This document shows, piece by piece, positions 1 through 1,113 of a DNA stretch of 7,502 nt. Position 1 is the first letter of the stretch; every line of letters begins with the position of its first letter. The position numbers and the translations under genes were made by a program. The stretch is from IMG/VR virus record IMGVR_UViG_2778261666_000008; one strand, 5' to 3'. The notes beneath the pieces are model-generated. The model was not told where the DNA came from. It saw nothing but the letters and a program-made list of their open reading frames with translations, and made no database searches. This DNA comes from a virus. Its lineage: Duplodnaviria; Heunggongvirae; Uroviricota; Caudoviricetes.

Positions 1-1113
1 TCAAAGACCAACATGCATAAGTGTGCCTGGACTGATATGCTTTGCGGTAGCGAATCCCGGCGCGTCGCATTGCAGTTTCCCATGACTGATTAATCGACCC
101 AACTGCATAATGGTACCCGGCAAGGCCATTACGCGTAACGATTTGCGGATTGAAACAAAAGTGCACGGATGCATTTCAGTTCGACCATACTCACGAAGTT
201 TCACTTCAACCTGATACTGCTTACCAAGCCGTGTCATTTCAGCCTGATTCTTAAGCACGTCTATTGCTGGTTGAATAAGGTTGATAACACGGTTTGTTCC
301 CGCTTCGGTTTTAGGAAGAGTGAACTCTTTCGTTAATGTGTGGTTTCTTCTGATCGTCATTGTCCCTGCCTTCAGGTCTATATCCTCCCATGCCAGAGAA
401 ACCAACTCCCCGTGGCGAACTCCCGTATACACAGCCAGCGACCACATATTTTTTAATTGCTGATGCTTAAATGCGTTAATCAACCTGACAAACTCATCAC
501 GGGTTAACGGATCAGGTTCTGTTCGTGATCTCTTCAGTTGCGAAATGGCTGCAAACGGATTTTCTTTGATGTATCCGCTGTCGGCTGCGAACTGAAACAT
601 CCCCGCCATGGTGTTCATGTAGTTATTAACAGTTGGCACGGAACGTCCCTTAATGGGTGTTTTTTGCCCACGTTTCAGAACATGATATCCGGTCAGCAAA
701 TCCTTTCGTATGAACAGCAGTTCTTCCTGGGTCACAGCAGATGCAAGTCTGTTGCCTCCGATTCGGGGAACCATATTTCTTACAATGGAGCTGTAACGCC
801 CCATCGCATTGGTACTGATTTCCAGCTTTTTCAGGTCCAGCCATTTCTCAGCCAGGTCTGCGACGGTAATTTCCTTACTTTCCGCACCAAATTTTCTCAG
901 GTTGGGAGAGTCCGGAAACTGAGCGGCATAGTCGAAATTACCCGTCTTAATGGAAAAACAAACAGACGCTCGTAGCTCGCCAGCTATTTTCCTGTTTTTT
1001 GGTGTATCCGGCACACCGAGACTTTCCCGTACTCGTGTGCCTTTATACATAAACCATATGCGGAGTGATCCGCCATGGTTCTCAACGCCTGTTGGGTATG
1101 CTGTCTTAGCCAT
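1..1113 (-). CDS. int: Phage-type tyrosine integrase (lambda-like, N-terminal arm-binding domain); 3' end appears frameshifted, possible pseudogene
   Basis: 370-aa ORF with ATG at 1113 and TGA at 1-3. The N-terminus (MAKTAYPTGVENHGGSLRIWFMYKGTRVRESLG...) resembles arm-type DNA-binding domains of lambdoid integrases, and a box I-like segment (AVYTGVRHGELVSLAWEDID) is present. The last ~55 aa of the annotated frame contain no Tyr and no box II. An alternative minus-strand frame open from 175 to the window edge reads ...FNPQIVTRNGLAGYHYAVGSINQSWETAMRRAGIRYRKAYQSRHTYACWSL, a good match to integrase box II (xxxRHTxAxW). This implies a 1-bp frameshift between about 152 and 178 (most likely the A-run at 153-155), with the true C-terminus beyond the left window edge. 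Confidence 0.85.
   Translation of the reverse strand: MAKTAYPTGVENHGGSLRIWFMYKGTRVRESLGVPDTPKNRKIAGELRASVCFSIKTGNFDYAAQFPDSPNLRKFGAESKEITVADLAEKWLDLKKLEISTNAMGRYSSIVRNMVPRIGGNRLASAVTQEELLFIRKDLLTGYHVLKRGQKTPIKGRSVPTVNNYMNTMAGMFQFAADSGYIKENPFAAISQLKRSRTEPDPLTRDEFVRLINAFKHQQLKNMWSLAVYTGVRHGELVSLAWEDIDLKAGTMTIRRNHTLTKEFTLPKTEAGTNRVINLIQPAIDVLKNQAEMTRLGKQYQVEVKLREYGRTEMHPCTFVSIRKSLRVMALPGTIMQLGRLISHGKLQCDAPGFATAKHISPGTLMHVGL

Follow-up and report, generated by a model that had tools for sequence, protein, structure and literature searches.

Probable inactivation of a lambdoid phage integrase by a one-base loss in a prophage remnant at the 3' end of fliE

The window analysed here, a stretch of 7,502 nt filed as virus record IMGVR_UViG_2778261666_000008 (Caudoviricetes), opens with a minus-strand open reading frame (ORF) for a tyrosine integrase of 370 amino acids, and this raises the question of whether the gene can still give rise to a working recombinase or has been cut off from its own catalytic end. 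A preliminary description of the window, made from its letters alone, had proposed that one base was lost from a short homopolymer near the left edge and that the catalytic box consequently lies in another reading frame. Our analysis leads to much the same answer: we consider it highly probable (roughly 0.93) that this is the integrase of a lambdoid (IntR-like) phage, inactivated by the loss of one base from a four-base A/T run. The coordinates of all features within the window are collected in Table 1.

Translation of the three minus-strand frames of positions 1-300 laid out the problem. The letters tca with which the window starts are the complement of the TGA that closes the 370-aa ORF, and the last 50 residues of this frame (SIRKSLRVMALPGTIMQLGRLISHGKLQCDAPGFATAKHISPGTLMHVGL, with ...EMHPCTFVSIRKSLRVMALPGTIMQLGRLISHGKLQCDAPGFATAKHISPGTLMHVGL as the C-terminal end before the stop) do not include a single Tyr, just as described before. 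A second frame, displaced by -1 relative to the annotated one, begins after a stop at 178-176, is open from 175 down to position 1 and reads NASVHFCFNPQIVTRNGLAGYHYAVGSINQSWETAMRRAGIRYRKAYQSRHTYACWSL; the third frame holds many stops. It is the second frame that carries the catalytic box, as had been claimed: Y360-Q-S-R363 lies there, and the genuine continuation of the integrase in this frame is FNPQIV...YQSRHTYACWSL. Between the displaced frame and the intact protein, 57 of 58 residues are identical, which is far beyond chance.

To locate the shift, we compared the window with complete E. coli genomes by megablast. Three E. coli chromosomes matched positions 1-1200 at 98.3% identity over 1201 bases, and the counterpart in strain UTAK-1 is an intact 434-aa 'tyrosine-type recombinase/integrase' (WP_021514423.1) that adjoins fliE. 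In a base-by-base alignment to this gene (locus L001), there was only one gap, placed by the aligner at position 152/153, that is, at the edge of A153-A155, while 18 of the 19 substitutions fell on third codon positions of the integrase frame. Further intact relatives at 98-99% nucleotide identity are found in several Escherichia marmotae genomes and in phage IdasGreatGrand, and in all intact alleles the run comprises four A where the window has three, in line with the single-base loss proposed earlier. On the coding strand, ACT TTT GTT TTC AAT CCG (T F V F N P) has become ACT TTT GTT TCA ATC CGC (T F V S I R), so that Val320 is the last native residue and 50 nonsense residues follow. Insertion of one T restored a clean 434-aa ORF ending in ...HAVGSDVIKQA and a stop in all frameshifted alleles for which the full length could be reconstructed (8/8), and the repaired alleles contained no further disabling change in the gene. 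The earlier prediction thus held as far as the restored ORF and its catalytic Tyr are concerned, but not with regard to length, for which ∼400-420 aa had been expected.

The sequence beyond the left edge of the window could be read from L003, a 334-kb metagenome scaffold that encodes the exact 370-aa product, contains the window as the reverse complement of its positions 3612-11113 and differs from it at four positions across all 7502 nt. In L003, the displaced frame runs for 64 more codons past the edge (TAGANPNFIAKQMGHSDAQMVYRVYGSWMAENNQDQVSILNQKLSEFAPSMPHAVGSDVIKQA, then a stop) and is identical there to the intact homologue. The restored frame continues with TAGANPNFIAKQMGHSDAQMVYRVYGSW...KQA, passes the GHS motif and the catalytic Tyr (GHSDAQMVYRVYG) and stops 18 nt from the stop codon of the convergent fliE gene. 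The expectation that the gene would continue past the left edge to a catalytic Tyr was therefore borne out, with Y396 and then a stop. Two observations had been named beforehand that would speak against a frameshift, namely a Tyr-free tail in intact homologues and stops ahead of the catalytic Tyr beyond the edge; the intact relatives do not have such a tail, and no stop precedes Tyr396 in L003. In gene calls, the downstream piece appears as an ORF of its own, 64 aa long, whose TTG start overlaps the premature stop. We also considered a split integrase made of two pieces, the second being this 64-aa ORF, and rejected it: residues 321-370, including R363, would still be missing, and the 64-aa ORF on its own matches Pfam at E = 0.055 only.

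What the shift removes from the protein was assessed with Pfam profiles and by alignment to the integrase of Tn1549. The 370-aa product matches Arm-DNA-bind_2 (PF12167) at residues 7-70 (E = 9e-26), yet its match to Phage_integrase (PF00589) is confined to residues 203-274, or profile positions 3-77 of 172, whereas that of the intact 434-aa homologue spans profile positions 3-165 of 172. The Tn1549 Int alignment places the catalytic residues at R233, K268, Y360/R363 (RHT363-365), GH386 and Y396. The mutant product retains both DNA-binding domains (arm and core) and the catalytic domain up to its midpoint, Arg233 and Lys268 included, and is devoid of four of the six catalytic residues (Y360, R363, H386 and the nucleophile Y396). 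The last two of these lie past the premature stop and outside the window, and all are regained after the one-base repair. As it stands, the window gene does not hold a complete catalytic domain in one reading frame, nor the set R...K...H/Y-x-x-R...H...Y with its nucleophilic Tyr. Since Y360-x-x-R363, His386 and Tyr396 are absent, DNA cutting and rejoining should fail, and recombinase activity, and hence the capacity for self-excision, should have been lost. Judged by its sequence, the gene is a pseudogene of the tyrosine recombinase family and not a functional member; its N-terminal arm-binding domain and the adjacent excisionase gene are those of an IntR-like, arm-type lambdoid integrase. Throughout this integrase family, intact and presumably functional alleles included, a Tyr replaces the first His of H-x-x-R.

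Table 1. Features of the 7,502-nt window and their coordinates.
Feature	Position	Strand	Remarks
Frameshifted tyrosine-integrase ORF, 370 aa (320 native + 50 out-of-frame residues)	1..1113	-	TGA stop at 3-1
Displaced native frame, integrase residues ~321-370, running off the left window edge	1..175	-	Near-identical to intact protein
Y360-Q-S-R363 codons, equivalent of H-x-x-R, out of frame	26..37	-	Tn1549 Int alignment: YQSRHT vs HAMRHT
A3 run (T3 on coding strand), site of the 1-nt deletion; A4 in intact alleles	153..155		F321 to S, then frame lost
Probable catalytic Lys268 codon (LPKTEAG), in frame	310..312	-	Aligned to PKTQSG of Tn1549 Int
Box I catalytic Arg233 codon (TGVRHGEL), in frame	415..417	-	Tn1549 Int alignment and sequence (gcg, complement CGC)
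Excisionase, DUF1233 family (PF06806, E = 2e-31), called 81 aa, longest ORF 97 aa	1159..1452	-	45 nt upstream of int
Two small early-left prophage ORFs (123/114 aa, 104 aa)	1480..2203	-	Without Pfam match
233-aa ORF with Invasin_D4 domain (E = 2e-7)	2588-3289	+	Pfam; inside remnant
IS3-family IS, ~1258 bp; orfA 4495-4806, orfB 3632-4459	3624..4881	-	95% identity to E. coli IS3-family copies
YadA-like trimeric autotransporter adhesin, 456 aa: head, stalk, anchor	6132-7502	+	Stop codon is the exact window end

The frameshift is not peculiar to the window. The exact 370-aa product was present on 14 contigs, and a second frameshifted allele (EOW64411.1 of Escherichia sp. KTE159, annotated as a hypothetical protein) on 20 further contigs. 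These contigs belong to NCBI assemblies, to metagenome assemblies in ENA and to Logan assemblies built de novo from separate runs. Read on the coding strand, the run was T3 both in the window and in all ten frameshifted loci inspected (10/10), and T4 in all intact alleles examined (L001, L015-L017 and L018-L031). The frameshifted alleles differ from one another at up to eight other positions. At 90% identity, the protein falls into a cluster of 126 members. Those listed are mostly 434 aa long and named as integrases of E. coli, E. marmotae or unclassified Escherichia, and two of them are of 370 aa, namely the window product and EOW64411.1. When the GTDB species representatives were scanned for the site at either run length, one locus (L009) was found; it has A4, and its match is confined to the final 243 nt of the window. 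The A3 34-mer, with which we sought an unbiased sample of frameshifted alleles in JGI metagenomes, had no matches there. On these sequences, the frameshift is real and inherited within a lineage.

The integrase sits in a much-reduced prophage. On L003, a perfect 42-bp direct repeat (CATAGTCAACAGGTTACAAAACCTACACCTGCATGGACATCA) is present at 2848-2889 and at 11300-11341, both outside the window, and the latter copy overlaps the int stop and the 3' end of fliE. Because the repeat holds the last fliE codons together with the integrase stop, it is the attL/attR pair for phages with an integration site at the 3' end of fliE. The two copies delimit an element of ∼8.5 kb with direct repeats at both ends, one of them beside int, as in an integrated prophage or a remnant thereof. 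Its complete contents are the truncated integrase gene, xis, two small ORFs, the Invasin_D4 protein, a theta-like fragment, an IS3-family element, the YadA-like adhesin and a transposase fragment. As in a defective ('grounded') prophage, the genes for morphogenesis, lysis and replication have been lost. In UTAK-1, by comparison, the intact int is the terminal gene of a complete 38.7-kb P22-like prophage, with a full gene set, between fliE and yedK. The ends of this prophage share the core CATGCAGGTGTAGGTTTT(G/T)TAACCTGTTG, which contains the last fliE codons; the core of the 42-bp repeat flanks it too, with one mismatch. Homology of the window to the UTAK-1 prophage stops at ∼1849-1889.

Some further features of the remnant deserve mention. 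No target-site duplication was evident at the flanks of the IS3-family element. The 3' part of the IS orfB is strongly diverged between L003 and L011, with 20 synonymous and 23 non-synonymous changes, a pattern that recombination of each copy with a different relative might produce. The 233-aa Invasin_D4 ORF differs between frameshifted lineages by two synonymous and seven non-synonymous changes, unlike its neighbours. The stalk of the YadA-like adhesin, a protein that we take to resemble the prophage-borne Eib proteins, comprises four or five tandem copies of a 24-aa repeat (ESMAYTDQQVTKNNAVINQNINNAK), and in Escherichia sp. KTE159 the adhesin gene is split into ORFs of 178 and 267 aa.

As to the bacterium that carries the element, L003 shares only ∼91% identity with E. 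coli over the fliE-fliG flank, and the names of the sister loci and of the protein cluster point to E. marmotae or unclassified Escherichia. These findings make E. marmotae (cryptic clade V), or a close relative of it, the most likely host. Across species, the integrase keeps 98-99% identity, which is to be expected of a mobile phage gene. Beyond the island, the flank reads yedE-yedF-ZinT-DUF1398-PPC in L003 (1-2900) and yedE-yedF-yedK in E. coli, so the neighbourhood of the att site differs between the L003 host and E. coli. A search of the literature on E. marmotae prophages at fliE yielded nothing specific.

Comparison with sister strains also bears on the order of decay. Other E. marmotae and Escherichia sp. 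genomes (L018-L027) contain this remnant, down to its IS, Invasin_D4 protein, small ORFs and xis, together with an intact 434-aa integrase, which places the frameshift last and confines it to a sublineage. The lambdoid early regions of apparently complete prophages with this integrase were present at the same site in E. marmotae (L015 and L028). We would thus envisage that a prophage integrated at the fliE 3' end, that nearly all phage genes were then lost and an IS3-family element inserted, and that the integrase frameshift arose afterwards in one sublineage and was passed on vertically. The earlier view of the element as an immobilised remnant is supported by these data and can be refined, in that the remnant and its IS predate the frameshift and the att repeats are perfect. 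The element would accordingly be disabled only in cis: given its perfect att repeats, an integrase supplied in trans could in principle still excise it. The fliE site collects integrase wrecks. At the far end of the UTAK-1 prophage (L010 38808-39014), an older 207-nt fragment of an integrase 3' end lies beyond attR. Thousands of E. coli genomes carry a fragment by fliE that aligns at ∼91% to the last ∼160 nt of int. Besides, a different allele in E. coli FLI21 (NZ_CP139808.1, L002 1818-3114; 79% nucleotide identity) is likewise annotated as frameshifted.

Nothing in our data contradicted the pseudogene reading, and the sole discordant note was the pattern of substitutions. Compared with five sampled intact alleles, 11 substitutions are specific to the frameshifted alleles (six fixed and five private), and each of the 11 alters a third codon position of the original frame and leaves the amino acid unchanged; two lie downstream of the frameshift. 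This is not what long neutral decay would leave behind, yet a very recent frameshift, recombination and sampling can explain it. Because retrieval was by exact identity of the protein, the alleles of one set can differ from each other only at synonymous sites, and the six fixed changes may be older than the frameshift. Moreover, four variable sites that are common to frameshifted and intact alleles failed the four-gamete test (sites 63/84 and 480/483/1059 fail it against intact alleles), which indicates recombination with functional copies.

The same substitutions could be taken to mean that the frameshift is bypassed, by a -1 ribosomal slip (e.g. of tRNA-Phe on ACU UUU G) or by transcriptional slippage, and that an active integrase remains under selection. 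In favour of such a bypass, a -1 P-site slip on U UUU would re-pair perfectly and restore the frame at the cost of a single Val-to-Cys change, and selection in the original frame would fit not only the 11 changes in the integrase but also those in its neighbours: over int, xis and the 114-aa ORF, two frameshifted lineages differ by 17 synonymous and three non-synonymous changes plus one in the shifted tail, with xis and the 114-aa ORF mostly synonymous as well. However, the retrieval bias and the recombination described above weaken this argument, and the overlap has none of the hallmarks of a programmed -1 frameshift, that is, heptamer, downstream structure and conserved two-frame arrangement. 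The canonical X XXY YYZ heptamer is absent, the predicted fold of the next 73 nt is no more stable than that of shuffled sequence (z = -0.08), and every other member of the family, including the alleles at 98-99% identity and the phage integrases, is encoded in a single frame, so a recoding signal could not have been selected. On chemical grounds, a P-site slip on ACU UUU G could occur, but it would be inefficient, and for transcriptional slippage a T run of three to four bases is far too short. We therefore rejected both forms of recoding as candidates and regard a bypass that maintains an active enzyme as very unlikely.

Alternatively, the truncated 370-aa protein might be kept for a non-catalytic role, either as a protein that binds arm or core sites and so disturbs the integration or excision of incoming related phages, or as a regulator. 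Its arm-binding and core-binding domains are intact, the att sites are still present, the two protein alleles differ upstream of the frameshift by seven synonymous and zero non-synonymous changes, and a passage in PMC6379469, citing Bobay et al. 2014, holds that hosts often maintain defective prophages. Yet intact alleles in identical remnants display the same pattern (13-22 synonymous vs 1-3 non-synonymous changes), which may have been inherited from functional genes or imported from them by recombination, and the sample is very small and biased. In addition, an independent truncation at the same point was not seen in other lineages; the allele of E. coli FLI21 at this site, frameshifted according to its annotation, is only 79% identical in nucleotides. 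Retention of the truncated protein for such a role is thus very improbable. Taken as one proposition, that either low-level -1 slippage supplies some active enzyme or the truncated DNA-binding protein has acquired a new role, these ideas strike us as very improbable; if true, slippage or a new role (e.g. interference at the fliE att site) would explain the 11 synonymous substitutions.

A sequencing or assembly error in the homopolymer with an intact gene underneath, which the preliminary description had kept as an alternative and to which the position of the change and the otherwise pristine gene might lend some colour, can be rejected, since the run is just three to four bases long, the 14 and 20 contigs with the frameshift stem from assemblies made independently of one another (NCBI, ENA and Logan), the three-base run recurs in ten such loci, and alleles that differ at up to eight other positions are not copies of one assembly.

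Inactivation by the one-base loss also agrees with what is known of related systems. The closest counterparts are the integrases of IdasGreatGrand (PP925829.1), 99.5% identical in amino acids to WP_021514423.1, and of the UTAK-1 prophage; the repaired window gene encodes essentially the same protein, with the same length of 434 aa, an adjacent DUF1233 excisionase and the same site at the fliE 3' end. Unlike these two, the window copy has one base missing, does not make residues 321-434 and resides in an 8.5-kb remnant rather than in a phage genome of ∼39-48 kb. IntR of Rac and of Stx-converting lambdoid phages belongs to the same family (∼72% amino acid identity over 98% of the length) and has the same domain order (Arm-DNA-bind_2, core-binding, Phage_integrase) and an XisR-like excisionase as partner, but its attachment site differs from the fliE 3' end used by the window gene, whose allele is moreover frameshifted. 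The integrase of Tn1549 (PDB 6EN0, 6EMY and 6EMZ) is a solved recombinase that matches the whole catalytic region; although a distant relative (E ∼1e-7), it shares the aligned box I Arg, RHT, GHS and the C-terminal Tyr, whereas in the phage protein a Tyr takes the place of the first His of H-x-x-R, and an additional arm-binding domain is found at the N-terminus.

A prophage becomes grounded, or cryptic, when a mutation in its recombinase or its att sites fixes it in the chromosome (PMC6379469). The cryptic prophages of E. coli (e14, Rac, DLP12 and Qin) have likewise been fixed by decay of excision, and they, too, contain IS elements and cargo genes (PMC6379469); the integrase of the window, by contrast, is at the very start of its decay, with one base lost, and both att repeats are perfect. 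The window integrase is an ordinary pseudogene of a 'grounded prophage', indeed a textbook case; public databases already contain the integrase family, its sequence in intact form and the frameshifted product as well (EOW64411.1). A further example of a cryptic prophage in this neighbourhood is presumably intG of E. coli K-12, which adjoins fliE.

In summary, the finding is of little importance beyond annotation, where the 370-aa and 64-aa ORFs should be merged as two pieces of one pseudogene. The locus does provide a clean, datable example of what would be the last step in the grounding of a prophage, with an order of decay that can be read directly, gene loss and IS insertion coming first and loss of the recombinase last. 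Excision of the remnant, along with its YadA-like adhesin gene, would still be possible with an integrase provided in trans, for which related phages with the same fliE site, in circulation among E. coli and E. marmotae, are a potential source.
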